A stretch of DNA of 20,000 bases, taken from the IMG/VR virus record IMGVR_UViG_3300035698_005334; one strand, given 5' to 3'. Shown one piece after another: positions 1 through 17,199 of the stretch. Within the stretch, counting starts at the first letter, position 1. Each line of letters starts with the position of its first letter. The position numbers and the translations under genes are program-made. The notes beneath the pieces are model-generated. The model had not been told where the DNA came from, did not search any database, and worked only from the letters and a program-made list of their open reading frames with translations. The DNA comes from an uncultured virus (IMG/VR IMGVR_UViG_3300035698_005334). Taxonomy: Duplodnaviria; Heunggongvirae; Uroviricota; Caudoviricetes.

Positions 1-1400
1 TTCCGATGCAGCCCCGATCTTGTGCCAAAACCGCCAGATCTTATGGCCCGTGTTCAGGAGCCCCATCTTGGAATCGCCACGTAACTTTTCGTCAAGTTGT
101 TTGCGGACACTTCCCGGCGTGATGTCGTAGAACCCGCCTGATCCACCACCGGCAGACATGATCGAGGTCAGAGACGCGGATCCCATGATGGCCTTCTTGA
201 AGCCCTTCACGGTGTCGACGCCGGGAATGAGACCCTTTTGGCCGGAAACAACCCATGCCGACATCGTGTCACGCAACACGTTCGCAACCATAAAAGCAGG
301 ATCCAGCGTGACGGACTCGGTCAGAACCCGTTTCGCCATACGGAACGCGACCATGATCCCGCCTAGCTGCGACTGGTGCAGCGAGGTAAGCGATCGCAGG
401 AGCATCGGATCCGTGACGCGCCGGTAGAGAATCTTCCCCTCGCGCATGACGCTGACCACGTCCGGGCCCGTAGGCGCGGCGATCTGCATCATTTGAACCA
501 AGGAATTCATCTCGACATCGGAAAGGTCCAAATCGTCGGGATCGATCTCCATCCACTCAGCGATCTTCTCCTTGATCTGAGCGGGAGGAATGAGGGCAGG
601 CTTATAGGCGCGGCCGAGTTTCTCCATAACGCCAGCATCGAGGGCGAGCGCCTCAACCTTCTGCATCGCCATGTTCTTCATGGAAGCGTCGACTAGGTGC
701 GTCATGTTGAGGATCATGTTCTCCAACACGTCGTTGACCTTCTCGTCGCGGCCGGTGAGGTATTGAACGCCGCTGCGCTGCCCTTCGACGCCACCGGATT
801 GACCCGTGTTCGGGCTTTGGGTGTCGTCTTCCAACAGACGATAGAACGGCACGTAGTCGGCGTGCTCCCACACCGCGCGCTGTTCCTTGTTGATGACCCC
901 GGACTGTTCGGCCATGTCGAGCATGGCGCGGTTGAACTCCATCCAGCGGTCGAGGACTTGCTGAAACTCAGGGTATTGATCGCCAAGCTTCAGAAGCTCA
1001 TCGATCTGTTCTTGGCTCATACGGTTCTCTCGCGACTTACCGTCCCGTCCCGTCTCACCCTTCAGCCGGTTCGCGCGGTTTGCTATAGCCCAGCCCTTCC
1101 ATAGGTGCAGAGTGCCAGCTTTAGCGAGATCCATGAAGATCGCCTCGAACCCACCTTCGAACCCTTTGCGCGTCTTGAACCACTTGTCGCCCTGGTCGTT
1201 GGTGTAGACCTCCAATGGCCCTTCACGCAGAACCGAAGCCATGACGCTGTGAATGTTGGTCGTCATGCGAACCGCTTTGTACGCGGACGCCATAGCGTCT
1301 GGAATCGAACCCAGAGAGTTTAGCTCCAACTGCTTCACGGCATCCCACTGATCGAGGAACCCTTGCCGCATACTGGCTACACCGCGTTTCTTCCACCAAT
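1..1400 (-). other. C-terminal helical region of the giant protein, resembling the region preceding LPD38 in large polyvalent/internal virion proteins
   Basis: Translation includes SAYKAVRM, WEHADYVPFYR, ENMILN and DPAFMVANVLRDT, which I recall from such proteins. Any LPD38 domain would lie beyond the window. Confidence 0.6.
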
Positions 1401-4400
1401 CGACCGCGCGCCGGACCTGCTCGAAGAAACCCGTTTCCTTCTGACCCATGCCGTGTTCCATCGCGGCTTCCTGGGTGTCTGTACCGCGGACTCTGTGATC
1501 GCTGTCCATCTTCGCAACGCTCGCCATCATCGAGCCAATGGAATAGGAATCGCGTCCTCCTCCCTCGATGTCCGATGGTGTGCGCTGGCTGACCTCACCG
1601 CTCTCGACACTGAGGAACACGTCCTCATAGGTCTGGAACCCAAGGCCGTGCATCATGTTCGCCACCCGGTTTAGGAACTGTGTCGCCTTCTTGAACATGC
1701 GCGTGATGACGGGAAGGCGCTTGCGCGTCTCTCCGCGACGGAACGCCCCGAACTCATAGGCCGTCGCCTCTTCAAGATCCTCAACGCCCCAGTGCTCTTT
1801 CCACGCCCCGGCCTCACGTTCCAGAAGCGCCCATTCCTGGGGAGTGAAGAACTTGCGCAAAGCGTGAATGATCTCGTGCCGAACACTCTCGACAGGATCG
1901 TCAGCCCGCATGGCAACACGGATGATGTCGGATTCGTAGAGGTACTGACCGGCGATCTCAGCCCTGTCCCCGGTTTCCATCCCAGACCGGACGAGGGACT
2001 CGCCTTCACCGAACAGGCGATCCTTGATTTCGAGGGTCGTACCTTCCGGTGCCATCGTTTCGAATATTTCGTTTACGCGATCGCGGATGTCCGGCCATGA
2101 CGCTTCTGCGGCAGGCGTAAGCCCGGTTCCGGTGCTGTACGACATAGCCAGACGCCAAGCATTGTCGGGATCCACATCGGTTCCCAGGAGAGCGTCTTGC
2201 CACGGGGTTTCTACTGCGGCCGCGCCCTTCTCAAGTTCCTCTTCAAGCGTCCAGACCTTGTTGCGAAGCTCCGCGAGTTCGGCATCGCCTTCGAACTTCT
2301 TGTCGAGGAGCGGCTCGAACTGTTCGACCTCATTCTTATACTGTTCGCGATCCTCAATACTGTCAGCCAATTCCTCCGGCAACCTTGAAACGATGTTCTC
2401 AAGCTTCTGCGTGATCCCCAACGCGGAGGAGCTGTCAGCATCCGAGCTTCTGTCGTCGTTGCGTATGATGGTCGCCCATCCTTCAAACGTGGTCGTTTTT
2501 TTGCCGAACTCTTTATACTCCCGAGTGTTGATCGCAAGGGGGAAACCGCCGATCTCACCGACGACTTGGTCATCTACGACCTGCTTGAGATCGATCACGC
2601 GCAAGATCTCACCCAACAGGCGTTCGCCGAACTTCACACGCTCATCGTAGGCGGCTCCCTGGATTTTGCCCGTAAAGGCGGCTCCTGCGGTATCCACCGA
2701 CTGCTCGATATCCTTCTCGATCTTGGGAATCGTCTCGTCATACCTGACGATAGCGCGATGCGCCCGTGAGACCCGGTCTTGGATCCCGTGCTGCTGGCGC
2801 GCGAAAGCAGACTTCCGACGTTCGGCCTTTTCGAGATCCTGTTGAGCCTCAGTCAGGATCATCACCCGTTCGTCAGACGTCGAAAGCGCCTTCGCCTGCT
2901 GGTACTGTCCAGCCTCGCCAAGGTCTTCCATGTTCCGCATTTCAGGATCGCCTTCAAAGAACTGCTGAATGAAGCGAGCCTTCTTCTCCATCAAATGCCA
3001 CATCTGGGAATCGTATGTGCCCTTGGTGGAGTAATCCCGAATGCGAATGAAGGGGTTCATGTTGCCTTGTCGGAGCGAACGGCCGTTTCTCTGTTCGTCT
3101 TCGGCCGGGAACCACAGTGGATCAAGATTGTGGCTCGCATACAGTCGTCGCTGTGCGTTGACGCCTGTCGCCATGGACATGCTTCCGATGAGAACACGCT
3201 TGGTCCCCTCGTTCATATCGTTGAACAAGCGCTGCTTATCGACCGCGCGTTTATAGTCCCCGAATAGGGCGATCTCCGACTTGGGCACACCGCGTCGGTG
3301 CAGTTCAGCCGCGATGTACTTGTGCGTGGAGAATTCTTTCCCGTGGATCCCCAGCCCGGAGAAAACCATTTGAGTGGCGGGCCCGACGTCTACCGGATCT
3401 ACGCTGTACCCATCAGGACCGGCTTCATGGAATGGCTGTAGCTTGGTTGACTCCCAGATTTCGAATACGGAGTCGACCAGCATGTTCAGCTTGGAGTCAG
3501 GATCGCCCTTCAGCTTCGCATCAACGAGGCGCATGTCGATCGCTGATTTGCGACCGTCCCCGATGACCGACAGGATGATGTCCTCGCCCTTTGCGGCAGG
3601 ACGTCCCCGGTTCTCGATAGCCAACATCCGGTTGCCGAGCGTCTCTTGGTACGCCTTTATAGCCGGGGTGCTCGGGGCGATGACCATCTCGCGCTTCCCG
3701 CCTTCCAGTTCCGGCCGAGTCACGTATTGACCAAGCTGCTTACTGGTGACGACATCCATGGTCTGCCGCACGATCAACGACAGTTCCGGCATATTCACGA
3801 ACTGACCGAACCGTGTTACCGATTTGTATCCGCCCGCTGGGTTTTGCTCCAACTCAGTGACGGTGTCCCCGAACGATGCTGCCCATGCGTCAAAGGACTC
3901 AATGCCATTCTCGCGCAGCATCGGGGTGTCCATGTATCGAGACACGCTGAAAAGCTCGGCCATGGTGTTGGTGACGGCTGTACCAGACGCGAACACTAGG
4001 TTGCGACGAGGCTTGATCGTTTCCAGATACCGGGTTTTCACGTACAGATCCCACGATGCCTGTGAGCCATTAGAGTCGATACCCTTGATGTTCTGCATGG
4101 TGGTGGCGAAATCCAGCTTACGGAACAGGTGCGCCTCATCGACGAACAGGAAGTCGACGCCCATTTCTTCGAAGGTGAACACGCCGTCGCCCTTGGATGC
4201 GCCACCGCCCTTCAATTGCTGCTCAAACTTCTCGATGCGGTTCTCGACCTGCTTGCGAGTGTATCTATTGTCCTCGTCGTCGGGGATCATCGCCAGAACC
4301 TCGCGGTACTCCGCGATCTGTTCTTTGATGAATTCACCCTCGAAAGACCCGGAGATCGGGATCTGCTTGAACGACGAGTGCGTGATGATGACCGCGTCGA

Positions 4401-7400
4401 GGTCAGACAGGGCAGCATTCGCCATGAATTGACGGCGTCGGCTGGTGTGGAACGCCCGATCGTCAGCAACCGCAATGCGGGCCGTCGGGTACTGTTCGTA
4501 GAACTCCTTGGTGAACTGGCCGAGCATATGGTTCGGAACCGCATACATCGGCTTGTTGACCAGCCCAAGGCGCTTCATCTCCATGCCCGCGCCGATCATG
4601 GCCGACGTCTTACCGGCACCGACAGCGTGGGCCATATAGGTGTTGCCGGATTGGATGATGCGAGCAACTACGCTCGTTTGGTGCGGACGCCATGACCACT
4701 CACGGGAGATCCCCGGCGTGGTAAGGTAGTCGCCGCTGTATTCACGGACAACGAGACTATTGAACTTCTCATTGTACGATTCGGCCAGTTCTAAGCGGCG
4801 CGCGTCATCTTCCCATATCCACTCGCGAAACTTAATCTTGATCTCCGCCAGCTTGTCTTGCGCTGCCTGTGTCAGTTCAGGGTTGAGGACGGGCTTTAAC
4901 TTCCCGTTCTCGCCCATCACCTGATCGAATATCTTCGGGTCTTTCCGGTTCGCCGCGAACTGCATCAGCTTCGTGGCGGGCATATGCTTCGTGCCCCAGG
5001 TATCGACAGCCGCCACCGACTTCATGTCGCCGGAAATGAACCATTGCCCTATTTTGGACTGATACTTGGCACGAACCGTGTCTAGTCCGAGAGCCTCAGT
5101 GCCGAACTGTTGCACGACGCTCTCGGGGATCCACGGCATACCGATGCTCGCCGCTATGTCGGTGTACGGGAGCGGGATCGGCTGCGAGTCTTCAAGGGCA
5201 GAGACGTTCCGTTTAATAGCCGGGTTACGATCCGCCTCGGCCGTGGCGATACGGAGCTTCTTGCGGACGTTGCCTGATAGATACTCTTCGGCAGTGACCC
5301 ATTCCTTCGAGGACGGGTCCATGTAGATTTTCTCGCCCAGTTCGGCGGTGACGGCATCTTCACTCTTCTTCGCCATCGCCGCGACTTCGGAGAGGATAAA
5401 GCGGCCCTGAGTGTTCATGACGTGCATGACAGCATCGCCAACCGAATCAATCTGCGGCTCGGGATCCCGCGATACCACGTTCTCGGTAAACACGAGGGAT
5501 TTCTTGGCTTCGTCCGTTACGGAGTCGTAATGTTCCACGGCCCTGATCCGGTAACTCTCCGGGTCATCCATGAACGCATCGATGTTCGGACGCTTGACGA
5601 CAACCTTGTCCGACATCCCTTCGCTATCAAAGGTGCCTTCGCTCCACGTCTCGGTGCCAGTGTGGTTCTCGCGGGCGTCTTTGCGCATTCGCGCCATCTG
5701 CGCCATCGTCGGGCGCTTCTGTAAGTTATCTTCGGCCAACTGCACGATGTCGATCGCGTTGAACGTGCCCTCGTCGAACGGTGTCCCTGCATACCGCGCC
5801 TCTTCCCGTGCTTCGGCGCGAGCGACTTCCTGCTCAACGATGCTCGGGCGACGGAACGAACGGACCTCGGTATTGATGGGCCCATTGTCAGCGATGTAGG
5901 CGTCGTACTCTTCGTTCAACCGCTTGCGGGCCTTGGAGGCGTTCTCGCCGTCCTCTGCAAGATCCGCCTCATAGACAGCACGTAACGAGTCCCTGATGGG
6001 GATAAGGCTCTTGATGACCTCGATATCCTTGGCCGTCTTCCCGCCCTTAACGCCCTTCCCGCGCTTCGGAACCTCACGTCCGATACCCTCGTTCATTTGC
6101 AAGAGATTGCCATCGCGGCCGACGTAGAAAGAACCTTCCTTGCGCTCGCTCGTTCCAAAGTCTGCAACTGCGGTATCGTGCGGGTTTAAGCGCTCTGACA
6201 TGACGTTCTGGGGAAGGCTGTCTATCGCGACAGCAAGCGGCTTGGTGTAGCTAAACTTCTCCGTCCAGCGCACACCGTACCGGCCAGGGTACAGACGGTC
6301 GAAGAAGCCCTCTTCACCGATCACGAGGGATGGATTGTCAGAGAACCACTTACTGACCTGCCCTTTTGTGGGAACACCCTCTTTGTTGGGAAGGGTTCGT
6401 TCGACGGTGCCTACCCACTGTTCCGGCAGAGCGATCCCGTCAACGGCGCTCAACTCTTCACCCTCGACCTTTTTACGAAGGAAGATAATGTCGGTCGTTA
6501 CGGCCGTTCCCGCATTCTTCTCGAAGGCGTTGCCCGGCAGTCGGATGGATCCCGCGAGATCAGCCCGTTCCGCAAGGTACTCCCGAGCATCCGTGCTGAT
6601 CTTGTTCATGGTCCCGGCAGACGTAATGAACGCCAGAAGACCGCCCGGCCTTACCGAGTCCAGGGATTTGGCGAAGAAATAGTCGTGCAGCATGAAGCCG
6701 CGCGCCGCATATTTGGGATCAGATTTTATCACGGTGTCGGAGAATGGCGGGTTGCCGATGACGAGGTCGTATTGATTCTCAGGCAACGGCGCTTCTGTGA
6801 AGTCATCGCGGCGCACACCGGAGTTGGGATACAGCAATCGAGCAATGCGGGCCGTCATGTGATCCAGTTCCAGGCCGCTGTAATCGATGTTCACACCATC
6901 CGGGGCCATCCCGAGGAAGTTGCCAATGCCCATGCCGGGCTCGAATACTTGCCCACCCTTGAAGCCCATACGCTCGACGCCGGTCCACATGGAGCGAACG
7001 ATCGCCTCGCTGGTGTAGTGCGCGTACTGGATGGATCGACGGGCCGTCGCGTATTCGGTATCGGTCAGCAGATCCCGAAGCTCTGTCCCGATGTCGTCGA
7101 ACCCCTTGCCAAACTCTCCCTTGTCGTTGGGGAACGCATTGGCAATGCCACCCCAGCCGACATACTTGGCAATCCGGCTCTGCTCGCCCTTCGTCGCGGG
7201 ACGTCCTTCGGCCTCGATCTCACGCACAAGGCGGATAGCTGACAGATTATCGCGGGCCTTCGTCTTCCAACCGCGTGTCTCGTCCAGGGATCCCGGCTCG
7301 ATGCGGTGGTTCTCTCCTGCTACAAGGCTGTCGTCATCTCGGGAAACTCCATCATCTGCGCCCAGACCACTTCCTTCGCCTCCCTCTCCTGGGCCATCGT

Positions 7401-10314
7401 CGGTTTTGGCCCCATCATCTGTTGGATCAGCAGCCCCGTCTCCTGCGCTTTCTCCGTCAGGTGCTTCTCCAGTTCGTTCGTCGACTGTAGATCCTTCATC
7501 ATCTTGGGCGCTTTCTCCGACATCGCCTGCAAGTACGTCGTCTTGAAGCTCTGCATCGTCTGTCCTTTCGGTTTCTTTAGCCGTTACGGGGATTCCCGGT
7601 TCGGGCTCAGCCTCTACTGGCTCATACGTCCGGTCCCTCTCGTTACTGAGACGATTGACGCTAATCGATCCATCAGGGGACATCTGGACCGGCTCGGTGT
7701 GGCGGACACCATCCTGAACAACGGAACGAACGCCTCTGTGATCCTCAAAGACGTCGTGACCGTTCTCGTTGACGCCTAGTTTTACCCATCCTTCTGCGCG
7801 AGGGGTCTCTTCCTCTACTGGGGCAGTGTCTTGTTCCTCGACAGGTTCTCCAAATTCATCGCCGTCTTCAGCGCTCTCCGTCTCATCGACGGGGCTATTT
7901 TCTTCTTCTGCTTCAGTGCTGCTCTCAGTCGGTACGCCCTCGTCGGTGACTTCATTGGTGGGTTCCTCTATTTCAGACAGGATCTCGTCGGCGTCCGCGT
8001 CCAAGTGCCGTTGGATCGCTTCCGCTGCATCACCGTCGGCAGGCGTCATCGCCGCGATCTGCGCGATCTCGTCATCCGTAAGATCAACTTCAATGCCTTG
8101 GGCGGTCTCACCAAGGCGGATGCGATTGTCTTCGATCTCGTCATCGGTCATCGCGAGGGGATCGGGCTCGGCTTGCTCCCCTTCAATAGCGCCATCCATT
8201 TCCTCAACCGACAATGTTTTGTTGCTGGTTGGGCTGAACGGTGTCTTCGGCATATAACGGTCTGGATTGAAACCGGCCTCATCCAGAGCGCGACGTATTA
8301 CTTCTCGTCCTGACTCGCCGAACGGTTCGTCCTCGATCAAGGCGCGCAGATCGTCGAAATCTCTGTCGCCTATTAAAGTTCGGGCCTGATCCCTGAGAGA
8401 TTCAAGTTCGGCTTGTGTCTCATCAACCGCGTCTTTTTGAGACACAACGTCATTTGTCTCTTTTGCACGAGACTCAATCGCCGCCTTCTCAACGAGACCG
8501 TTGATCTCGGCATCGTAGATATTGGCGGCTTCCTCGCCCTGTTCGGCGCGGATCTCCTCGACCGTATCGTCGATAGCCTCGTTCCGGACATTGCCTTGTT
8601 TGGTGAAGTCTTGCGCAGCGCGCTTATACAGCGCGGCCGTATCAAGCTCATCGGTCTCTTCCGGCGCTACGACGTCATCGGGAATTGGGGGCCCATCGTC
8701 TTCTGGCAGTAGCCGTGCGCGCTGTCCGCCCGTCTCCATGTTGGCCTCAACCTGGGCACCGCCTGGGAGAATATCGCCGTCGGGGACGTCCTGCCATTCC
8801 TCGGTCAGCTCGAAGGGAATAGTGACCGATTCCGTTTCCTCGCCCATCTGCCCGGCGATAGCGGACTTGTGGTCGCCGTTCGCTTTCCACTCGTTCCATT
8901 CGTCGATCGTTAGTTCGGTGACGTCCTGTCGACGGGCTGGGCCCTTGCCGTCCGTGAACGACCTGTCGTATGCCGCCTCGGCCTCGGCCTTGCTCTTTGC
9001 GCCCGCGAAAACTTTATGTTCGTCAAATTCTCCGGTTTCTAGGTTCTTCTGATCGACGACATAAACGTTGTCGCTTTGCAGGTCATCCATGACGTGGATA
9101 TCAAGCGGATCGCCATCTGCACCCTCGGTCCCTTTTATATAACCATAATCATTATAGACGGGAGATTCCCACTGCGGCGGGACGTTGTTCTTGTCGCGGC
9201 GGATCGAACCCTTCTCGTTCTCAATCGCGACCTCGGTCCCTTCCAGCTTGCCCTTCAAGGACATGTGAACCTTCTGGTAATTCCCAGCGTTCGCCTGTCC
9301 TGGCGTCGGTTCGGCTGGGGTCGTCGGCGCATTCTTGATGTCTTCGGCGCTCGTTGCCTTGACCGGATCCGCTTTCGTACCCGTCCCAGTCGCCTCAGAG
9401 CCCGCCAGAGCGCCTTCGATCTCGTCGGGCGTGCTTGCACCCGGCAACGCCTTGTCAGGCATCAGGCCCGACGCGCCGCCCATCATCGTGCCACCTAGAA
9501 AGCCTGCCGCCGATGCGTTCGCGATGCGGGACAGTACCTCGGCCGACTTGGGAACGAAGCCGTGAACCTTCTCGGCCTCTATCGCGAGCGCTTCTTGGCT
9601 TCCTTCCGTGGCAGTCTCGATAACCGCGCCCTTCGCGGCCTCGCCTGTCACACGTCGCGCCACACGACGAGGGTCAGGCACTCCCTTACCCATACGCATT
9701 AGACGACCAACGGCCTTGATCGGGAGAAGGGAGTCGAGCGCGCCACCGGCAGCGCCGTACTTCACGGCAGTGTCCGCACGCTCATTCAGGGGAACGCCCA
9801 ACTCAGCAAGATTGGCATTCACTTCGCCCGCGTTGAGGAGGGTGGACGCGGCAAACCCTCCACCGATCGCGCCGATAGGACCAGCGACAACGCCGCCCGC
9901 CAGTGCGCCCGCAACCGACGTCCCCATGGATGGGATTAGGTTCCCAGCTTGGAACGCCGACCACTTACCCGCCCGCGTAAGCGTATCGATAACGTCTTTG
10001 CCGGGGATGTCTTCGAGCGTCGGGACTGCGCCCTGATACTGCTCGGCTTCCCGTGTGTTGCGCTCACGGATCTCAGCGCCCTTCTGACGGAGGTAATCGC
10101 TGTTGATCTTCTCGCCCGCAATCTCAACAGCACTACCGCCCGCGCCTTGGGCGAAATCAACGCCGCCCTTCAAGCCTTTGACGAATTCCCCGTCTTCGCC
10201 TTCGCCTTCAGGTGCTCCCGTGCGGAAGAGTTCTTCGCCTGAGACCCCACTGGTTCCCGCATTAGCAAGAGCGCCGCCTCCGAATACCTCTTCCGCACTA
10301 AACGTTCGTGCCAT
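1..10314 (-). CDS. Giant polyvalent DarB-like virion/ejection protein (pyrophosphatase, N6-adenine MTase, SF2 helicase, zincin metallopeptidase, helical C-terminal region); 3' end truncated, at least 3438 aa
   Basis: Hand translation from ATG at 10314 (MARTFSAEEVFGGGALANAG...; AAGGT about 8 nt upstream; previous gene stops at 10326) to ...MGLLNTGHKIWRFWHKIGAASE at base 1 found no in-frame stop. It is presumably absent from the ORF track because it has no stop in the window. In-frame motifs: DGDPLDI, FEPGMGIG, GNPPF, HAVGAGKT, DEAH, QRNGRSLRQGN, HEIIH. Confidence 0.95.
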   Translation of the reverse strand, partial: MARTFSAEEVFGGGALANAGTSGVSGEELFRTGAPEGEGEDGEFVKGLKGGVDFAQGAGGSAVEIAGEKINSDYLRQKGAEIRERNTREAEQYQGAVPTLEDIPGKDVIDTLTRAGKWSAFQAGNLIPSMGTSVAGALAGGVVAGPIGAIGGGFAASTLLNAGEVNANLAELGVPLNERADTAVKYGAAGGALDSLLPIKAVGRLMRMGKGVPDPRRVARRVTGEAAKGAVIETATEGSQEALAIEAEKVHGFVPKSAEVLSRIANASAAGFLGGTMMGGASGLMPDKALPGASTPDEIEGALAGSEATGTGTKADPVKATSAEDIKNAPTTPAEPTPGQANAGNYQKVHMSLKGKLEGTEVAIENEKGSIRRDKNNVPPQWESPVYNDYGYIKGTEGADGDPLDIHVMDDLQSDNVYVVDQKNLETGEFDEHKVFAGAKSKAEAEAAYDRSFTDGKGPARRQDVTELTIDEWNEWKANGDHKSAIAGQMGEETESVTIPFELTEEWQDVPDGDILPGGAQVEANMETGGQRARLLPEDDGPPIPDDVVAPEETDELDTAALYKRAAQDFTKQGNVRNEAIDDTVEEIRAEQGEEAANIYDAEINGLVEKAAIESRAKETNDVVSQKDAVDETQAELESLRDQARTLIGDRDFDDLRALIEDEPFGESGREVIRRALDEAGFNPDRYMPKTPFSPTSNKTLSVEEMDGAIEGEQAEPDPLAMTDDEIEDNRIRLGETAQGIEVDLTDDEIAQIAAMTPADGDAAEAIQRHLDADADEILSEIEEPTNEVTDEGVPTESSTEAEEENSPVDETESAEDGDEFGEPVEEQDTAPVEEETPRAEGWVKLGVNENGHDVFEDHRGVRSVVQDGVRHTEPVQMSPDGSISVNRLSNERDRTYEPVEAEPEPGIPVTAKETERTDDAELQDDVLAGDVGESAQDDEGSTVDERTGEAPDGESAGDGAADPTDDGAKTDDGPGEGGEGSGLGADDGVSRDDDSLVAGENHRIEPGSLDETRGWKTKARDNLSAIRLVREIEAEGRPATKGEQSRIAKYVGWGGIANAFPNDKGEFGKGFDDIGTELRDLLTDTEYATARRSIQYAHYTSEAIVRSMWTGVERMGFKGGQVFEPGMGIGNFLGMAPDGVNIDYSGLELDHMTARIARLLYPNSGVRRDDFTEAPLPENQYDLVIGNPPFSDTVIKSDPKYAARGFMLHDYFFAKSLDSVRPGGLLAFITSAGTMNKISTDAREYLAERADLAGSIRLPGNAFEKNAGTAVTTDIIFLRKKVEGEELSAVDGIALPEQWVGTVERTLPNKEGVPTKGQVSKWFSDNPSLVIGEEGFFDRLYPGRYGVRWTEKFSYTKPLAVAIDSLPQNVMSERLNPHDTAVADFGTSERKEGSFYVGRDGNLLQMNEGIGREVPKRGKGVKGGKTAKDIEVIKSLIPIRDSLRAVYEADLAEDGENASKARKRLNEEYDAYIADNGPINTEVRSFRRPSIVEQEVARAEAREEARYAGTPFDEGTFNAIDIVQLAEDNLQKRPTMAQMARMRKDARENHTGTETWSEGTFDSEGMSDKVVVKRPNIDAFMDDPESYRIRAVEHYDSVTDEAKKSLVFTENVVSRDPEPQIDSVGDAVMHVMNTQGRFILSEVAAMAKKSEDAVTAELGEKIYMDPSSKEWVTAEEYLSGNVRKKLRIATAEADRNPAIKRNVSALEDSQPIPLPYTDIAASIGMPWIPESVVQQFGTEALGLDTVRAKYQSKIGQWFISGDMKSVAAVDTWGTKHMPATKLMQFAANRKDPKIFDQVMGENGKLKPVLNPELTQAAQDKLAEIKIKFREWIWEDDARRLELAESYNEKFNSLVVREYSGDYLTTPGISREWSWRPHQTSVVARIIQSGNTYMAHAVGAGKTSAMIGAGMEMKRLGLVNKPMYAVPNHMLGQFTKEFYEQYPTARIAVADDRAFHTSRRRQFMANAALSDLDAVIITHSSFKQIPISGSFEGEFIKEQIAEYREVLAMIPDDEDNRYTRKQVENRIEKFEQQLKGGGASKGDGVFTFEEMGVDFLFVDEAHLFRKLDFATTMQNIKGIDSNGSQASWDLYVKTRYLETIKPRRNLVFASGTAVTNTMAELFSVSRYMDTPMLRENGIESFDAWAASFGDTVTELEQNPAGGYKSVTRFGQFVNMPELSLIVRQTMDVVTSKQLGQYVTRPELEGGKREMVIAPSTPAIKAYQETLGNRMLAIENRGRPAAKGEDIILSVIGDGRKSAIDMRLVDAKLKGDPDSKLNMLVDSVFEIWESTKLQPFHEAGPDGYSVDPVDVGPATQMVFSGLGIHGKEFSTHKYIAAELHRRGVPKSEIALFGDYKRAVDKQRLFNDMNEGTKRVLIGSMSMATGVNAQRRLYASHNLDPLWFPAEDEQRNGRSLRQGNMNPFIRIRDYSTKGTYDSQMWHLMEKKARFIQQFFEGDPEMRNMEDLGEAGQYQQAKALSTSDERVMILTEAQQDLEKAERRKSAFARQQHGIQDRVSRAHRAIVRYDETIPKIEKDIEQSVDTAGAAFTGKIQGAAYDERVKFGERLLGEILRVIDLKQVVDDQVVGEIGGFPLAINTREYKEFGKKTTTFEGWATIIRNDDRSSDADSSSALGITQKLENIVSRLPEELADSIEDREQYKNEVEQFEPLLDKKFEGDAELAELRNKVWTLEEELEKGAAAVETPWQDALLGTDVDPDNAWRLAMSYSTGTGLTPAAEASWPDIRDRVNEIFETMAPEGTTLEIKDRLFGEGESLVRSGMETGDRAEIAGQYLYESDIIRVAMRADDPVESVRHEIIHALRKFFTPQEWALLEREAGAWKEHWGVEDLEEATAYEFGAFRRGETRKRLPVITRMFKKATQFLNRVANMMHGLGFQTYEDVFLSVESGEVSQRTPSDIEGGGRDSYSIGSMMASVAKMDSDHRVRGTDTQEAAMEHGMGQKETGFFEQVRRAVDWWKKRGVASMRQGFLDQWDAVKQLELNSLGSIPDAMASAYKAVRMTTNIHSVMASVLREGPLEVYTNDQGDKWFKTRKGFEGGFEAIFMDLAKAGTLHLWKGWAIANRANRLKGETGRDGKSRENRMSQEQIDELLKLGDQYPEFQQVLDRWMEFNRAMLDMAEQSGVINKEQRAVWEHADYVPFYRLLEDDTQSPNTGQSGGVEGQRSGVQYLTGRDEKVNDVLENMILNMTHLVDASMKNMAMQKVEALALDAGVMEKLGRAYKPALIPPAQIKEKIAEWMEIDPDDLDLSDVEMNSLVQMMQIAAPTGPDVVSVMREGKILYRRVTDPMLLRSLTSLHQSQLGGIMVAFRMAKRVLTESVTLDPAFMVANVLRDTMSAWVVSGQKGLIPGVDTVKGFKKAIMGSASLTSIMSAGGGSGGFYDITPGSVRKQLDEKLRGDSKMGLLNTGHKIWRFWHKIGAASE
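1560..2100 (-). other. Zincin-like metallopeptidase domain of the giant protein
   Basis: AEIAGQYLYESDIIRVAM...VRHEIIHAL (HExxH at 1878..1864), followed by DLEEATAYEF (candidate third Glu ligand) and a helical MFKKATQFLNRV segment. Confidence 0.8.
2880..4700 (-). other. SF2 (SNF2-like) helicase/ATPase domains of the giant protein
   Basis: WRPHQ Q-motif; Walker A HAVGAGKT (4629..4606); Walker B LFVDEAH (DEAH 4140..4129); motif III ASGTAVTN; MATGVNAQ; motif VI QRNGRSLRQGN (3093..3061). Confidence 0.95.
6460..7260 (-). other. N6-adenine DNA methyltransferase domain of the giant protein (motif I before motif IV)
   Basis: KARDNLSAIR...KYVGWGG, AHYT, SAM-binding FEPGMGIG (6945..6922), GLELD, catalytic NPPF (6753..6742), HDYFFAKSLD, RLPGNAF, TDIIFLRK. 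This series is typical of DarB-like MTase-helicase fusions. Confidence 0.95.
7320..7556 (-). CDS. Nested out-of-frame 78-aa helical protein, TnpV-like, wholly inside the giant gene
   Basis: ATG start with GAAAGGA 6 nt upstream and TAG stop. The product has normal globular, amphipathic composition (MQSFKTTYLQAMSEKAPKMMKDLQSTNELEKHL...EREAKEVVWAQMMEFPE), while the host frame here is low-complexity D/E/G. TnpV resemblance is from memory. Confidence 0.72.
   Translation of the reverse strand: MQSFKTTYLQAMSEKAPKMMKDLQSTNELEKHLTEKAQETGLLIQQMMGPKPTMAQEREAKEVVWAQMMEFPEMTTAL
7563..7569 (-). promoter_or_regulatory. Putative Shine-Dalgarno for the nested 78-aa ORF
   Basis: Minus strand reads CTAAAGAAACCGAAAGGA-CAGACG-ATG. 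Confidence 0.65.
7815..7955 (-). CDS. Possible second nested small ORF (46 aa, basic) in an acidic linker of the giant gene
   Basis: AGAGGAA-CCCACCA-ATG, then MKSPTRAYRLRAALKQKKKIAPSMRRRALKTAMNLENLSRNKTLPQ-TAG. Same frame as the 78-aa ORF and below the ORF-track size cut-off. Confidence 0.4.
   Translation of the reverse strand: MKSPTRAYRLRAALKQKKKIAPSMRRRALKTAMNLENLSRNKTLPQ
8880..9310 (-). other. Inorganic pyrophosphatase (InPase, polyvalent-protein type) domain of the giant protein
   Basis: PTPGQANAGNYQK...IENEKGSIR...DYGYIKGTEGADGDPLDI...VVDQ...FDEHKV...EWNEW. DGDPLDI (9117..9097) fits the family I PPase D-x-D-P-x-D signature. Confidence 0.88.
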
Positions 10315-10325
10315 GGAGCATTACC

Positions 10326-12497
10326 TTATGTTGGTTGGGGAACGAGAGCGCCGGTTTGTGCTTGCGGTGGGGGATCGAACTTCCCTTCGCCTGCGTACTT
10401 CGCGGTTATCCCGTTCATCTTGTAATTATTCCCGGGAACCATGCCCTTGTAATTAATCTGCCCGTCTTTCATGGGCATAGGCGTGCTGGGAGATTTACCC
10501 TCGGCAATGTCTTCCGCCCGTCGCTGGGCACCCTGATAGTCAATCTCGCCAAGCCCGTCCTTGCCTTGGGCCTTGATGTCGGCCGCATAAGCGTCAGCCA
10601 TGACCTTCTTCTTAAACTGACTGGCATCTTGGAAATACTTGGACCGAGCGAGGGCGTGCTTCGCCTTCGAACTTGTAAGGCTGGTCAGAACCGTTGCCGC
10701 CTTCAACGCGCTGTCGTATGACTTCCCGCTTGCCCTGGTGCGAGCCGAGTCACGAGCCGCCCGGTGTTTCTGATTGGCAAGCCCGGCGTCACCAATAGCC
10801 TGCAACGCGGAACGTCCGGGCTGCGCGGCCATCATGTTTAGGCCCAAATTGAGCATGGTGTCGTTCCGGTCGCTCTTGTCCTGCTTCGCCTGGGCTTCCG
10901 GCGACAACGCCCCTTGTCGTTCCAACAGCGCGAGGATCTTGTCCTCGAAGCTTACGCCACCGGCACCGTTGGTTTTTAGACCTTGCTCGCCAGCGCCAGA
11001 TAACGCGCCTTGCTGTGAATCGTCGGCATTAAGCTCATCGTTATCCGTCGGGCCGGTCTGTCGACTATTCTGCGTGCCGGGGTTCGCTGCTCCCGGCGCG
11101 CTTTGCGCGGTGGAAGGCGTTACCGGGGTGGTGCCCGTCAACTTATCGACTGCGGGCCCGACCTTGCTGGCCAATGCCCCCATTTCCCCAGTGGCATCTT
11201 TCCATGCTTTGTTGCCCGTTCGCTTGGCGGCTTCGTACCAATCGGAACCGTATTTCGCAGCAGCCGCGCCTGCTTCAGGGAAGTTTTTCTTAATCACCCT
11301 ACCAGCGGCATCGATAGGATTTTTCTTCAACGTCCGCTGAGTAGCGTCGAGACCTTCACGGGCCCGTGACTCCAACGAGTCACTGTCCGCGCCGACAGAC
11401 TCCCCGCGCTGCGGAACCCCATTCCTTACCGCATCATTGCCCTGCATGTTCGAGGGCCCGTTTGTATTGCGATTAAAGGCATCCATCGAAAATGTCGGCA
11501 TCGGCATACCCGGACGGGCCGGTGGCGCTGTGGCTGTCGTCGGTAAGGATGCGGTCGGACCACCAGCCGCGAACCTGTTGGCCGACAAATCTCGCGCGGA
11601 GAACTCTCCGGGGTTCGCGTTCTGAATGGTCGGGTTCGGATTGTTCGCACCAAACCCGGGACGCCCGCCTTGAAGCGCCCCGGTCACACCGGCCATTTTC
11701 TGACGGAGAGCAACAGGGTCAACGGAACCGTCCTTCGGAGCCACCGGTGGCATCTGCTGTGCCATTGGATCCTGTGCGGGACCGCCCATCATCGTCCCAC
11801 GGCCAGGAACGCCAGGGATCTGCGGGTTCTTCAACTCCGCCAACTGTTTGGCGCTAATTTTCTCAAGGTTGGTTTGGACCCCTTGCAGGTAGCTCCGGGT
11901 GCCTGAATTCATATCAGCGGGCTTGGCACCACCCTTGATCCACTTGTCCGTCGCGCCGGGGCCCATGTTGTAAGCAGCAAGAGCCTTCGGAAGATCGTTA
12001 TCGTACTTCTTCATTTGCTTCGCGAGGTAGGCTGCGCCACCCATGATGTTTTGACGGGGATCCATGCGATCCGTAACGCCCATCTCTGCCGCCGCTTCCT
12101 CGTGCAACTGCATGGGTCCAACGGCTTTGCCACCATCACCCTTTGCGGTGTTGGGGGACTTTTCGCCGCCCGATTCCCGCATCTGCACAGCTTTTATGAT
12201 CTGAGGATCTATGCCGTATTTTTTACCGGCCTCATCGAAGATCGTGTCGTAGTCGGACGGGCCCGTAATATCGAACTCATCTCCTTGATCGTCAGCGCTG
12301 GCCTTCCCCGCGTGCTCTTGGATCTTCGCCATGGCAGCTTGGTGCAGAGCGCCGCCCAGCAACTTATCTGTCTCGCGCGGCTGTACCGGCCTCCCCGGGA
12401 CTTCGGGCGCGGCCGGTGGGCCTCCGCCTGCATTGATACCTGGGCCTGCCATCTGAGGAATACCTTGGCCCTGCGGAATTTGTGATCCGATCGGCAT
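10326..12497 (-). CDS. Virion-associated lytic transglycosylase (SLT domain) / internal ejection protein, 723 aa
   Basis: SLT motifs IIKAVQMRES (catalytic Glu about aa 108), GPMQL, NIMGGAAYL and ALAAYNMGPG. The rest is Gly/Pro/Ala/Gln-rich. AAGGGG lies upstream of the ATG. Confidence 0.88.
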   Translation of the reverse strand: MPIGSQIPQGQGIPQMAGPGINAGGGPPAAPEVPGRPVQPRETDKLLGGALHQAAMAKIQEHAGKASADDQGDEFDITGPSDYDTIFDEAGKKYGIDPQIIKAVQMRESGGEKSPNTAKGDGGKAVGPMQLHEEAAAEMGVTDRMDPRQNIMGGAAYLAKQMKKYDNDLPKALAAYNMGPGATDKWIKGGAKPADMNSGTRSYLQGVQTNLEKISAKQLAELKNPQIPGVPGRGTMMGGPAQDPMAQQMPPVAPKDGSVDPVALRQKMAGVTGALQGGRPGFGANNPNPTIQNANPGEFSARDLSANRFAAGGPTASLPTTATAPPARPGMPMPTFSMDAFNRNTNGPSNMQGNDAVRNGVPQRGESVGADSDSLESRAREGLDATQRTLKKNPIDAAGRVIKKNFPEAGAAAAKYGSDWYEAAKRTGNKAWKDATGEMGALASKVGPAVDKLTGTTPVTPSTAQSAPGAANPGTQNSRQTGPTDNDELNADDSQQGALSGAGEQGLKTNGAGGVSFEDKILALLERQGALSPEAQAKQDKSDRNDTMLNLGLNMMAAQPGRSALQAIGDAGLANQKHRAARDSARTRASGKSYDSALKAATVLTSLTSSKAKHALARSKYFQDASQFKKKVMADAYAADIKAQGKDGLGEIDYQGAQRRAEDIAEGKSPSTPMPMKDGQINYKGMVPGNNYKMNGITAKYAGEGKFDPPPQAQTGALVPQPT

Positions 12498-12511
12498 AAT
12501 AAAACCCCTTG

Positions 12512-13405
12512 TTATCCTGAGAAGGAACCGTAGATCGATGCAGCCGCCAGACCGGCACCAGCCGCCTGGGAAAGGCCGCTCGACTGATCTGTGAACCGCT
12601 GACCGTCAGTCGTTGAATTGGTCGTCTTGTTGTGCGGAACGCCTTGAAGCGCACCCAGGACGAAGTTGAGGTTTTCGTAAGGCCAGTTACGTTCCTCAAG
12701 GAAGTCGCCGTATGCGGTGTCGAGAGAAGCCTGTTCAAGGCTCTGCTGCTGCGCCCCGGTAGCGCTAAGATTGAGGACATCGGCTGTGCCAAGAGCCCCG
12801 GTATTTTGAGCGATTGATTCGTAATTGTCTGAACCGGACAGAGACGCCTTCCTGTCGAGATCAAACCGCGCGGCACCGGACTCGTATCCGGTATGCGCGC
12901 CCTTCAATGCTAGATCCGCAGAGCTTTCGAGGAACTGCTCATCATCGAGCGAATCTCTGATCCCATGTCGGGCTCCGCCATACGCTCCGGCAGATACAGC
13001 ATCCGCGTCACGAAACTTTGCCATACGCTGGTATTGGTCTTCGAGGTTCCCCATTGCGATATCCGTCACGCCCTGCTGATAGGGGTTCAAATACCCTTCC
13101 CTCTGCTGATCGGAGATCGTGTTCCACTGTTGGGTTCCCTGGTCGGTCAGAAAGCCAGCCTGATCTAACGCTGGCTGGAAGTTTCCGACATTGTCCCGCG
13201 TAAGCTGGAACGCTGATTGTTGATCGTCGTTGAACCCGGCAACACGCGGATCCGTATAGACCGGATATTCCTGCTGACCGATCTCCTTCGCCTGCTCGAA
13301 CAACTGCTCGCCGCCAGTCGAGATGTACTCGGGTAGCTCGGTGACGTTATTAATCGTCGTCGTCTCTGGCTGTGCGGTAGGCTCGCTCTCGCAGAAAAAG
13401 GCCAT
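12512..13405 (-). CDS. Pilot / DNA-transfer (ejection) protein, 297 aa
   Basis: Gln/Ala/Gly-rich with RVAGF..DQQSAF, YLNPYQQGV, AGAYGGARHG and a C-terminal Gly/Ala hydrophobic tail (LSQAAGAGLAAASIYGSF). Lies between the GNAT-like and transglycosylase genes. Confidence 0.7.
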   Translation of the reverse strand: MAFFCESEPTAQPETTTINNVTELPEYISTGGEQLFEQAKEIGQQEYPVYTDPRVAGFNDDQQSAFQLTRDNVGNFQPALDQAGFLTDQGTQQWNTISDQQREGYLNPYQQGVTDIAMGNLEDQYQRMAKFRDADAVSAGAYGGARHGIRDSLDDEQFLESSADLALKGAHTGYESGAARFDLDRKASLSGSDNYESIAQNTGALGTADVLNLSATGAQQQSLEQASLDTAYGDFLEERNWPYENLNFVLGALQGVPHNKTTNSTTDGQRFTDQSSGLSQAAGAGLAAASIYGSFSG

Positions 13406-13406
13406 G

Positions 13407-13955
13407 CTACATTCCTCTTACAAAGAAGCTCCCGGCTTTGGTGAAGCCGTGCTTGGTAAAGAATTTGTCTTTGCGGTCCACGTCTTTTCCGTAGAACACG
13501 CCCATTCGAAGGACCGCGCCAGGGTAGACCTCGTCGATGGCAGTCTTTAGGGACGAGATCAATTCGACCGGGGCTCGCGTGTTGCGGCGAAACTTGGATC
13601 GAACGTAGTACCAGAGATCCCCGAAGTGCTTGTCGTCGCCCCACCAATCAGGGTGCGCCTCGATGGCGACAGATCCGATAAGCTCTTTGGTCTCTTCGTC
13701 CTCGGCAATCAGAACGTACCCGTTCGTGATGCACGAGATAATCCGTGACATCGTCTTATTCGGGTTGATCTTCGACATCATGAGCGGCGTTTCTTCGTGC
13801 ATCTCATAGAGCATGACGAGGATCGCGCTCGCGTCGAACTGGATGGCGGGCCGGATCGTTAATTTGATCGGCTCCGCCTTGGGCGCGGGTTCCGGCTCCC
13901 GCCTGTTCTGGACAGGCAACCTTTTAATGGGTGCCGCCAATGCTGCTTCAGCCAT
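13407..13955 (-). CDS. GNAT acetyltransferase-fold protein (virion assembly factor), 182 aa
   Basis: IRPA...D, VLIAE...LIGSV, WYYVRSKFR, KFFTKHGF match the GNAT pattern. AAAGGA RBS upstream. The position is comparable to assembly genes just upstream of ejection genes in other podoviruses. Confidence 0.78.
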   Translation of the reverse strand: MAEAALAAPIKRLPVQNRREPEPAPKAEPIKLTIRPAIQFDASAILVMLYEMHEETPLMMSKINPNKTMSRIISCITNGYVLIAEDEETKELIGSVAIEAHPDWWGDDKHFGDLWYYVRSKFRRNTRAPVELISSLKTAIDEVYPGAVLRMGVFYGKDVDRKDKFFTKHGFTKAGSFFVRGM

Positions 13956-13986
13956 TTAAACGTCCTTTAATATTTGTTTGATCGCG

Positions 13987-14745
13987 CTACCAGGCGTCAC
14001 TGGGGTCACCCGCTCCGGGGCCACCGCCGCCGCTACCACCAGTATCGTCATCCCCACTTCCTGAACCGTTTCCACCGACACCGGGCGCACCGGGCTCGGC
14101 GGCGTCAGGCGCATCGGGTGCATCGGCACCAATATCGGCAGGGTCAGAGTTCGCGGTTCCCTGAGCTGCTGCCGCCGCTGCCGCCGATGCTGCGGCATCA
14201 ACGTCCGCACCAACGTCTTCGGCGGTTGATGTGGTGCCTACATCCGGACCCTCAGAGTTGGCCTCATGGTCCTGCTCATTGGAGAACAGAGACTGAATGC
14301 CCATTATGGCCCTTGCGATAGTGAACGGGACCGACAGGATATTGAGGGCCGGAATAGCTAGTGAGAGAAAGGTAAGGCCCGTCGATATTTCTGACAGTGA
14401 AAGGTTCCCCGTAAATCCGTTCTCCTCGTCGTCGGGCGTTGCGTCGGGATCCCCGTCCAATAGAGTATCTTGGAAAGGGTTTTGGTCAGACTGCGACGGC
14501 GGTGCCGTAAGCGCCCCACCCCCAGCCTGCGGACCTCCTTCTCCTTCAGGGAGATCGGGGAAGGCCAATCCGGACGAATTAAAGAAGCGGTGCCCACCGA
14601 GACCGCCCTCTTGGCCGAACGTGCGACCGGCTCCGGTGGGAAGAGGGGTAAGCGTTCTCGCGTACTCGCTGCCAACGGCATTGTTGGAGGATCCAGAGCC
14701 AGAAAGTGCGCCGGTTTCGTCTGAGAACGGATCTACATAAGACAT
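13987..14745 (-). CDS. Gly/Asp/Ala-rich protein with one central hydrophobic segment (about 252 aa; alternative start 14766)
   Basis: Fills the gap between its neighbours. ATG at 14745 is 1 nt after the upstream TAG. Hydrophobic stretch ISTGLTFLSLAIPALNILSVPFTIARAIMGI and an acidic disordered tail. Confidence 0.75.
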   Translation of the reverse strand: MSYVDPFSDETGALSGSGSSNNAVGSEYARTLTPLPTGAGRTFGQEGGLGGHRFFNSSGLAFPDLPEGEGGPQAGGGALTAPPSQSDQNPFQDTLLDGDPDATPDDEENGFTGNLSLSEISTGLTFLSLAIPALNILSVPFTIARAIMGIQSLFSNEQDHEANSEGPDVGTTSTAEDVGADVDAAASAAAAAAAQGTANSDPADIGADAPDAPDAAEPGAPGVGGNGSGSGDDDTGGSGGGGPGAGDPSDAW

Positions 14746-14746
14746 A

Positions 14747-15004
14747 CTATTTCCCCAAAACCCCACAGGTTTTCATGTCGGTGATTAGTGTACCAAGAAC
14801 ATCGGCGATTTCCGCAAGAGTAGTGCTATCGGCGTCGAACGTCTTTGTCTTTGTGACGTTCGTAGGAGCCGCCCAGCCCGTCGAATATGGCTGACCCATC
14901 CTAGTCTGCATGGATACGAGCGCTCTCGTGAGATCCCTAGCCCAGTGCGAACTATATTCGTCTTGGGATTCGGGAAGCCGGATAGAGGAATTATTTAGGC
15001 TCAT
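14747..15004 (-). CDS. Small tail-associated hypothetical protein, 85 aa
   Basis: ATGA overlap with the nozzle gene stop; protein-like sequence (RLP...EYS..W..DL.R; DVLGTLITDMK). Confidence 0.75.
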   Translation of the reverse strand: MSLNNSSIRLPESQDEYSSHWARDLTRALVSMQTRMGQPYSTGWAAPTNVTKTKTFDADSTTLAEIADVLGTLITDMKTCGVLGK

Positions 15005-16758
15005 TCTTCACCATCCGGTTCGATATCTGCGATCGGGCGTCCAAAGCGCCAGTAAACCCCCGAAACATCACCATCAAGCCTCACAGCGACCCGGCGACCT
15101 CTAACCCGGGGCCGGATATTCGTGGTGCTCGCCTGGACGTTGAACGGGCCATAGGAGACCTGGGTACTTCCCGGCGTCATGCGGGACTTGAACGTAATAT
15201 CAACCGGACCTCCAACAAAGTCAGGGATAAGGCGATTCATGAAAGCGACCTGCTTCCCGTTCGAGATATCGATATCGCCGGACTCGATAAACTCACCAAG
15301 CGCCGCGCCGTCTTCGTCGGTGTGGTCTGACAGTTCATGCTCATAGATCTCGCCGCTGGCGTCTGTCGCCAATGGGGCTGAGAAAACATCGCTATCGATA
15401 TAGGACGTTCTGTCGAGATCCCCGAAATCCCAGGCGTTGTCTTTCCAATTGTATTTGACGTACTTGTCGTTCTCTCCCCCGCCGTCCGCGCTCGGGTAAA
15501 ACCACCATATCTCTTGCCGGGTCTCGAACATTCCGGTCGTAACCTTATCCTTCTGCGCTCTATCGATATCGTCGAAGACGTGTCGAAGCATCGAGCACGC
15601 CATGTCCTTGATAGTGCCGTCGTAAAGCTGGAACGTTCCGTTCGCCATCCAGAAGGCCACGCCGTTACGTTCGACGGGAGCCGCGATACCGAACGCGCCG
15701 TTCGAATCGCCGATGGTCGAGAGATCGAAAGTGAAGTCGCCCCCAACGAACCGCAGAGAGTGAACGCTGACGTCTGTCCAAATGATGATCTCGGTTTTCG
15801 TTACCAAAGCGGTAACGATTTTGGAGCCCGATAGGAGTTGTCGTTCCCCCGCAGTCGTCGATGCGGACTGGGTCCAGTTTGTGTAATCCCCCTGATCGCA
15901 CCATTGGATCTTCGAGGGATCCCCACCAGCACCCAAAGCGATGACGTGGCGATCATCCGGCGACAGAATGAATAGTTCCGCCGTCGGTGCGGCCGACACC
16001 ACCGCTGCCGGTGTGCCGATACCAACCGACGCATCCCACACGTAGAGACCATAACCGCGCGGCGAGGCAAGGAGATCCTCCCCGAAATTCATCATGCTCC
16101 AAATCCTGAGATCAAGCGTCGTATTGGAGGCCGTTCGCGCGGTATTCCATGTCGAATCGTTCCAACTACCCGCGCCAAACCCAAACGAGAAGGTCGAGGA
16201 GTCTACGCCGATGCTGAGTTGATACGAATACGTCACGGATGCGCCGCCACCAGATGTCGAGGAGTCCGCGGTGGTCGTGTACGTGATGACGTAATTGTCG
16301 TCATCGGTGATTGAGGTAACGATGTATTCGCCGTCGACGGTGACGTTATCGACCGCCGCCGCACCCCCGAAGGTCGCGCTGTCCCCTGCTTGCAGTCCGT
16401 GCGCCGTGTCGGCAATGGACACGAGGGCTGACCCGCTGGTGATGGTTATTGGATTGCTGCCCAGAGTGCCCGAATCTCGAACCGGCGTGATGTCCGTCGC
16501 TGTCGACCCCTGGACGGTGTAGAGCTTCGTGCTCGTTCCAACCGCGACGTTCTTGGTCCCGTCGATCTCCGACCAAGAGTGCATCGATCTCGGAACCCCG
16601 AGAACGGGAGACGCTAAAAGCTTCTGCCAACCACCGATGGGCTCGGGTAAGCCGTCGCGGAATCGGATCCGGTTTGACGATAGCCACTTTCCCTCGGCCC
16701 CGTATGGAGTCAGATCAGGGTAAACGCCGGGAGGGATTTCGACGGGGAAAAATGGCAT
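15001..16758 (-). CDS. Tail tubular protein B / nozzle (P22 gp10-like stabilisation protein), 585 aa
   Basis: Beta-rich. N-terminal PGV...W....RIRFRDGLPEPIGGW, IQWCDQGDYTNW, EIWWFYPS...NDKYVKYN and C-terminal RVRGRRVAVR...WRFG..ADIEPDG are typical of podoviral nozzle proteins. Confidence 0.8.
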   Translation of the reverse strand: MPFFPVEIPPGVYPDLTPYGAEGKWLSSNRIRFRDGLPEPIGGWQKLLASPVLGVPRSMHSWSEIDGTKNVAVGTSTKLYTVQGSTATDITPVRDSGTLGSNPITITSGSALVSIADTAHGLQAGDSATFGGAAAVDNVTVDGEYIVTSITDDDNYVITYTTTADSSTSGGGASVTYSYQLSIGVDSSTFSFGFGAGSWNDSTWNTARTASNTTLDLRIWSMMNFGEDLLASPRGYGLYVWDASVGIGTPAAVVSAAPTAELFILSPDDRHVIALGAGGDPSKIQWCDQGDYTNWTQSASTTAGERQLLSGSKIVTALVTKTEIIIWTDVSVHSLRFVGGDFTFDLSTIGDSNGAFGIAAPVERNGVAFWMANGTFQLYDGTIKDMACSMLRHVFDDIDRAQKDKVTTGMFETRQEIWWFYPSADGGGENDKYVKYNWKDNAWDFGDLDRTSYIDSDVFSAPLATDASGEIYEHELSDHTDEDGAALGEFIESGDIDISNGKQVAFMNRLIPDFVGGPVDITFKSRMTPGSTQVSYGPFNVQASTTNIRPRVRGRRVAVRLDGDVSGVYWRFGRPIADIEPDGEE

Positions 16759-16789
16759 TACAGCCGATGCACCATTGGGAACAAGATTT

Positions 16790-17193: not shown

Positions 17194-17199
17194 CAGACG

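Follow-up and report, generated by a model that had tools for sequence, protein, structure and literature searches.

The locus described here raises the question of whether a short open reading frame (ORF) lying out of frame inside a giant DarB-like gene encodes a protein of its own, or is a by-product of the sequence that surrounds it. It lies in a 20,000-nucleotide (nt) stretch of DNA, hereafter the window, from an uncultured virus of the Caudoviricetes (IMG/VR record IMGVR_UViG_3300035698_005334), for which an initial annotation had proposed an out-of-frame TnpV-like gene just before the methylase module of the giant protein. That core proposal was borne out, in that the frame, the start codon, and the Shine-Dalgarno (SD) sequence are kept in relatives. 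The comparisons below make it very likely that positions 7320 to 7556 are a real, selected, and separately translated gene, nested in the +1 frame of the DarB-like gene. The elements concerned are the following.

7320 to 7556, minus strand: nested TnpV-like gene, 78 codons, starting with ATG, in the +1 frame of the giant gene

7320 to 7322, minus strand: TAG stop codon of the nested gene, as read from the sequence

7563 to 7569, minus strand: SD-like sequence GAAAGGA, 6 nt 5' of the nested ATG (positions -13 to -7)

1 to 10314, minus strand: giant gene for a DarB-like polyvalent virion protein, 3,438 codons in the window, with its 3' end beyond the window

The nested ORF has the attributes of a fully embedded out-of-frame gene: it is on the same strand as its host, it uses a different frame, both frames are open in relatives, and it has a translation start of its own, an ATG with GAAAGGA before it. 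It overlaps giant residues 920 to 999, a D/G/E-rich stretch running from DDAELQ to DDDSLV, and the overlap ends 20 codons ahead of the sequence KARDNLSAIR, which occupies the giant protein from residue 1019 onward. The initial annotation had described just such a same-strand, shifted-frame ORF of 78 codons, coinciding with a linker of the giant protein and stopping about 20 codons before KARDNLSAIR, and the coordinates and peptide strings that it quoted agree with ours.

A search with the giant protein around the nested ORF yielded 25 viral contigs, and two further scans yielded 7 and 8 new ones. The giant frame was open in all 25 contigs of the first search, and a homologous +1-frame ORF was present in 40/40 related viral contigs, one of which (L008) is cut by the contig end. 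With the 78-residue peptide as the tblastn query, the +1 frame of the giant gene was matched in loci L001 to L007 at E values of 1e-9 to 2e-14, and the alignments show substitutions typical of protein. A profile built from these loci matched a further 14 at the corresponding position and in the same frame (E values of 4e-4 to 0.07). Among the loci with a homologous ORF are those of the Burkholderia Bcep22 group and of Ralstonia phages, as well as L010, which is divergent and of low identity. In all contigs of the two later scans, the ORF that hosts the nested one in its +1 frame has 1,220 to 3,987 codons. Erwinia phage PEp14, which was outside the profile-building set, likewise gave a +1-frame match (E value of 9.5e-5). 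The nested proteins of the relatives are 84 to 113 residues long. The initial annotation had looked to tBLASTn homologues as a check on its proposal, and in these 40 contigs they exist. No match was obtained by tblastn with an L003-type nested peptide against phages and plasmids, with family protein P0118 against plasmids, or with P0120 and P0074 in viral scans.

Both coding frames have remained open over considerable divergence. Among 35 sequences (34 loci and the window, leaving out the near-duplicates L004, L005, L024, L036, and L037 and the truncated L008), the nested and the giant frames were free of stops in every one, down to less than 25% identity. The third frame contained 189 stops and was open in none of the 35. 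The start signals were compared in 40 sequences (39 loci and the window), with the SD core sought at positions -18 to -4 of the 27 distinct upstream sequences. The start codon was ATG in 39 and GTG in 1. An SD core of at least 4 nt was found in 25 of the 27 upstream sequences, versus 133 of 1,146 background +1-frame ATGs (11.6%), and one of at least 5 nt in 16 of the 27, versus 42 of 1,146 (3.7%).

Selection on the two frames was compared by the position of variable sites, giant codon position 1 being nested position 3. In five groups of close relatives comprising 19 loci, variable sites outside the overlap were distributed over giant positions 1, 2, and 3 as 510, 389, and 1,208; inside the overlap the distribution was 62, 39, and 34 (chi-square P = 1.6e-12 versus outside). 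Six groups comprising 22 loci gave 220 changes within the overlap: 87 leave only the nested protein unaltered, 51 leave only the giant protein unaltered, 3 alter neither protein, and 79 alter both. These counts indicate that the nested frame is the more constrained of the two among close relatives. In pairs from within a subfamily, the nested reading aligned better than the giant reading in 20 of 20; over all pairs, including the cross-subfamily ones, whose alignments are noise, it did so in only 26 of 55. The giant reading of the overlap has no invariant column across 16 relatives.

The two readings also differ in predicted structure. In the giant frame, the shared bases read as the following feature.

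7321 to 7554, minus strand: giant-frame reading of the overlap, a low-complexity D/G/E/A-rich linker (giant residues 921 to 998)

With a family alignment, AlphaFold2 (AF2) modeled the nested reading with a mean predicted local distance difference test score (pLDDT) of 80.6 and a predicted template modeling score (pTM) of 0.59, placing helices at residues 4 to 15, 17 to 25, 29 to 48, and 54 to 68. The giant reading of the overlap, likewise with a family alignment, gave a pLDDT of 59.2, a pTM of 0.13, and no secondary structure. The prediction of four helices is consistent with the earlier impression, in the initial annotation, of a folded, helical product. The suggestion made there that the nested gene shapes the linker sequence also gains from the comparison: because only the nested reading is predicted to fold and the giant reading lacks invariant columns, the linker would be the shadow of the nested gene. 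Foldseek returned no match of the nested model to the PDB at E values of 0.001 or less, and the best matches in a wide fold search with VIA-align (Z of 5.0 at most) were to generic helical segments.

The window differs from its relatives in the composition of both readings. The giant-frame linker of the window, with 19 D, 8 E, and 16 G among its 79 residues, greatly exceeds in acidity those of the relatives, which are rich in G, A, R, and P. The window's nested protein is unusually rich in Met (10 of 78 residues) and has Ser or Gln at sites of Arg in the relatives. Such a pattern suggests that each frame constrains the other, perhaps under the pressure of an acidic proteome of the halophile type. 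Seventeen DNA sequencing runs contain the stretch, all of them salt lake metagenomes. The contigs assembled from those runs were all of low depth and matched the window exactly at the nested ORF and around it, so that they offer no population variation to analyze. A metagenome scan returned only L031, a 100% identical contig, and no relative above about 67% identity was found for the methylase module.

What kind of protein is encoded? The initial annotation had noted a resemblance to TnpV (PF14198), and this held as remote homology but not as a family match for the window's own peptide. In scans of that peptide alone against Pfam, PHROGs, and NCBIfam nothing meaningful was found, and Pfam TnpV was not matched even at E values of up to 10, which speaks against the assignment. 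Among 17 family members, TnpV was the top or commonest Pfam family for 8, with a best E value of 3.8e-4; the relatives' scores of 12.9 to 20.9 bits lie below the curated gathering cutoff of 27. The family profile matched 427 cluster representatives at E values of 1e-3 or less among 1.84 billion proteins, mostly of 80 to 115 residues, and 9 of the best 150 profile matches listed exceed the Pfam TnpV cutoff. Alignment by hhalign of the family to 8 TnpV-positive sequences gave a probability of 99.2% (E value of 2.7e-19 over 99 columns), and alignment of the window peptide alone gave 96.9% (E value of 1.8e-10 over 68 columns), a comparison that is partly circular, also to the detriment of the assignment, because the 8 sequences were chosen from the family profile's own matches. 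Their passing of the Pfam cutoff is independent of that profile. The similarity to TnpV is collinear over profile positions of about 25 to 110, and in the ESM Atlas the nearest clusters (0.89 and 0.87) carry TnpV on 11 to 13% of their members. All 8 viral loci found with sequences of the type that passes the cutoff have them inside a giant gene. By these profile comparisons, the nested protein is a remote homologue of TnpV and not a member by the Pfam criterion.

Like the nested protein, TnpV is a small all-helical protein of about 80 to 110 residues that is carried by mobile DNA. It differs in belonging to the clostridial mobilizable transposons Tn4451 and Tn4453 and elements related to them, where it stands beside a large serine recombinase, whereas the nested gene lies inside a giant virion gene. 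No recombinase was seen among the window's other genes, which are of virion, ejection, and lysis types, so that a context of the Tn4451 type is absent. TnpV has been postulated to act in excision through its likeness to lambda Xis, according to the accessible part of one description (PMC3158075). Neither 14 control genomes nor genome G001 contained Pfam TnpV, and among 401 genomes from the phylum to which G001 belongs, the family profile matched one, G001 itself; the TnpV-like domain is rare among the cellular genomes sampled. No free-standing pair of a tnpV gene and a methylase-helicase gene, as would be expected under the initial annotation's conjecture that a two-gene cassette was captured, was found, TnpV neighborhoods in cellular genomes not having been surveyed.

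The domain also occurs outside nested genes. In two alphaproteobacterial metagenome-assembled genome (MAG) loci it is not nested and starts ORFs of 198 and 252 residues, as listed here.

L029, 5001 to 5597: non-nested TnpV-like ORF in a MAG, adjoining IS66/IS5-type transposase genes

L030, 5001 to 5759: non-nested TnpV-like ORF in a MAG, adjoining IS66/IS5-type transposase genes

In L029, L030, P0013, and P0018, the TnpV-like domain forms the N terminus of proteins of 198 to 264 residues, and in L029, P0013, and P0018 a conserved C-terminal domain comes after it, one without a Pfam match that includes a ...GIYGDDYQHKTLWDEYCH... stretch. Database proteins that carry the TnpV-like domain in frame with other domains include P0074, P0077, P0070, P0013, and P0018. 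In P0074, P0077, P0070, and P0048, one ORF combines it with a domain bearing an NK(I/V)FT...AR..L..KL motif. The upstream part of P0074 matches plasmid proteins annotated as PLxRFG or LPD38 domain-containing, and because P0074-type proteins carry both parts, the TnpV-like module may also occur in frame within polyvalent proteins.

Several observations weigh against a functional nested gene, and they are best considered together with the explanations that they would favor. The ORF could be a chance shadow of the giant gene, in which acidic, G-initial linker codons give few +1 stops and a helical-looking M/K/Q/E/T peptide, and no protein is made. Indeed, the length and composition of the nested ORF alone are not beyond chance. 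The 87-codon open stretch that holds it ranks only seventh by length among those in the giant gene's +1 frame. When synonymous codons were resampled with the giant protein fixed, the +1 frame was open for at least 87 codons in 62.5% of trials and contained an ATG-initiated ORF of at least 78 codons in 18.1%; with local synonymous permutation, the corresponding values were 8.9% and 4.7%. Stops are few in the +1 frame of the overlap because 72% of the giant codons there begin with G. Of the 78 nested codons, 56 end in G, and both the length of the ORF and its helix-friendly M/K/Q/E/T makeup are partly by-products of the G-initial acidic giant frame. The giant frame, moreover, is not free of constraint, as judged by the 51 changes silent only there. 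Similarity in the alternative frame is no evidence by itself either, because tblastn matches, down to an E value of 2e-28, are also obtained with other shadow ORFs that overlie conserved domains of the giant protein; the strong matches come from ORFs over the methylase and helicase domains (about 4290 to 7219 of the window, minus strand). Scoring overlapping ORFs by similarity alone is risky, as conservation of the giant frame creates such matches as a side effect. Most of the best matches listed for these shadow ORFs contain stop codons, however, and they sit where the giant frame is conserved. At the nested gene it is the nested frame that is conserved and the giant frame that is not. There the ORF, start, and SD are kept across the 40 contigs, L010 included, the third frame is closed throughout, the variable sites shift to the nested wobble position within the overlap, and homology extends to a Pfam family defined independently. 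Conservation in relatives is thus the feature that, by these comparisons, exceeds chance, and the comparative data already contradict a chance shadow ORF, which we regard as extremely improbable.

The nested gene could instead be a relic, a once-independent tnpV-like gene that was swallowed by gene fusion and that is still recognizable but no longer expressed or needed. The window's copy has features that would suit decay: it is the shortest member of the family, lacking the loop and the C-terminal tail of most relatives, and it deviates at some near-invariant positions, with Ser at one where Arg is near-invariant. No RNA run was found among the sequencing runs listed as containing the stretch (17, all DNA). 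The closest relatives, L038 and L034, also have the short-loop form, however, so that shortness appears to be a lineage trait and not decay, and a relic would hardly have kept the ORF intact in all 35 sequences of the open-frame test, with SD and ATG retained, wobble following the nested frame, and changes silent only in that frame outnumbering those silent only in the giant frame. We consider a relic very unlikely. Similarly remote is programmed ribosomal frameshifting, which would join the TnpV-like segment to giant sequence, for example in an N-terminal product ending in the TnpV-like segment. In-frame fusions of the domain do occur among the database proteins described above (C-terminal in P0074 and P0077 and mid-protein in P0070), and the upstream part of P0074 has the polyvalent-type matches already noted. 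But the last +1 stop precedes the start by 3 codons in L023, by 9 in the window, and by 12 to 15 in L006, L010, and L035, and because a shift site would hardly fit into so short a distance, a fusion by frameshifting is improbable. In almost every locus, furthermore, the domain boundary coincides exactly with the start codon and its SD.

One further ORF serves as a useful contrast to the nested gene.

8373 to 8651, minus strand: ordinary shadow ORF of 92 codons, in the +1 frame over acidic giant residues 550 to 646

Its product (P0153) is rich in Arg, Ser, Pro, and Lys, and it gave one weak alternative-frame match in 40 loci (E value of 6.6e-4).

A separately translated gene nested in the giant frame is therefore the reading that we carry forward, and its surroundings bear on what the product might do. 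The giant protein matches phrog_10089, "DarB-like antirestriction," with an E value of 0, and the Pfam families InPase, N6_Mtase, and Eco57I. Its domains in the window are as follows.

8884 to 9300, minus strand: InPase (inorganic pyrophosphatase-like) domain, residues 339 to 477 (PF18823, E value of 4.1e-36)

7147 to 7260, minus strand: start of a four-helix, LPD36-like domain, from KARDNLSAIR (residue 1019) to GWGG (residues 1053 to 1056)

6466 to 7053, minus strand: N6-adenine DNA methyltransferase domain, residues 1088 to 1283 (PF02384, E value of 5e-8)

2464 to 5451, minus strand: SF2/SNF2-type helicase region, about residues 1622 to 2617 (phrog_11801, phrog_1685, and phrog_16)

The methyltransferase has an NPPF motif at residues 1188 to 1191, and the helicase motifs GAGKT and DEAH are at residues 1899 and 2059. 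GWGG, NPPF, GAGKT, and DEAH thus follow in the order of a DarB-like polyvalent protein, inside a virion module. The LPD36 assignment was made by position and by the GxGU motif as described in the accessible part of PMC5512222, not by model score. The domain order is that of the P1 DarB, or LPD36-methylase-SNF2, polyvalent module of Iyer et al. 2017 (PMC5512222), which, in the portion available, treats such genes as single polypeptides; the nested gene would add a second, separately encoded product. Upstream of the giant gene, positions 10326 to 19408 (minus strand) hold a podophage-like virion and ejection module. It includes a 723-residue SLT transglycosylase protein, "DNA ejection protein" (phrog_4287), an acetyltransferase-like protein (phrog_1249), a 585-residue virion structural protein (phrog_3287), and tail-fiber-like proteins.

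The nested gene abuts the LPD36-methylase module in the window and in 6 of the 8 loci checked for position. Because it stands immediately 5' of the module across very divergent relatives, its product may work together with the LPD36-methylase-helicase module, a possibility suggested by position that we think worth naming but less probable than its contrary. The other two of the 8 loci do not fit it well, since the nested gene lies about 170 to 310 giant residues upstream of the module there, at the following places.

L049, 6001 to 6285: nested match set apart from the module

L051, 6001 to 6270: nested match set apart from the module

The two bacterial MAG loci also count against it, with a TnpV-like domain and no methylase-helicase module nearby. 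A complex prediction for the nested protein with an LPD36-methylase fragment (residues 14 to 346) scored 0.01 and 0.00 and gave no informative answer.

The comparisons show selection for dual coding in the overlap, with the translation-start signals conserved. The nested frame would yield a four-helix, TnpV-related protein, and for the giant protein the shared bases would specify an unstructured spacer whose one requirement is the absence of stops. Scanning for sigma-70-like promoters revealed none on the minus strand close to the nested ORF, and because no separate promoter-like site lies nearby, the small protein would presumably be made by internal initiation, at its own SD and ATG, on the late mRNA of the giant gene. 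Its product may be a partner made beside the module on the same mRNA, one that helps the module to fold or assemble or that regulates it; alternatively, it may serve on its own as a factor during DNA entry into a new cell. The initial annotation had conjectured that it could be a chaperone, an inhibitor, or a specificity subunit. In a stronger form, the TnpV-like protein would be an obligatory, separately translated subunit of the LPD36-methylase-SNF2 antirestriction machine, and the nesting a device for assembly or dosage common to the DarB-like genes of phages. Encoded directly 5' of its binding partner, such a subunit could be synthesized from the same mRNA and assemble with the nascent module. 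We put this stronger form forward tentatively and regard it as doubtful.

Has the gene been recorded before? The initial annotation had expected gene callers to discard it, and in 41 of 41 GenBank/RefSeq phage records (10 Burkholderia and 31 Ralstonia, with GenBank and RefSeq copies counted separately) only the giant coding sequence (CDS) is annotated under the match. The records of BcepIL02, Gervaise, and PEp14, inspected directly, likewise have only the giant CDS. The main text of Iyer et al. 2017 (PMC5512222) contains no occurrence of TnpV, "overlapping," or "frameshift." In the available text of the papers on phages JC1 and CSP3, "embedded" is applied to a gene only for Rz1, and in that of the JC1 paper TnpV does not occur. 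The literature searched on DarB-like genes and TnpV, which leaves out most subscription journals, including the original Bcep22 paper, gave no description of the nested gene.

As such, an embedded out-of-frame gene is a known kind in phages. The spanin gene Rz1 inside Rz is likewise a complete same-strand gene within another, in another frame and with its own start; in lambda, Rz1 lies in the +1 frame. The spanin proteins, their place, and their function are unrelated to the nested gene, whose host reads the shared DNA as a disordered interdomain spacer. Bcep22-like relatives have been described, in the accessible parts of the papers, as carrying embedded Rz1 genes (PMC9144972 and PMC10269572). 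The product of the TnpV superfamily, judged from sequence comparison, makes the present gene a new, conserved, and unannotated case.

DarB-like giant genes make up about a fifth of the genomes of such phages, according to the part of one report that was available (PMC9144972). A conserved second product changes how the DarB-like antirestriction function should be dissected. Deletion or truncation of the linker would also knock out the nested gene, and mass-spectrometry searches against annotated proteins alone could not match nested peptides. A simple profile-based annotation rule could recover the gene. The locus appears to be a clear example from nature of DNA coding in two frames, where the cost of hosting a folded protein is a disordered spacer between domains of the other, and it would attach the functionally orphan TnpV family to a defined, testable molecular machine. 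If the nested protein should prove to be a subunit of that machine, this would be the first function for the long-orphaned TnpV family.

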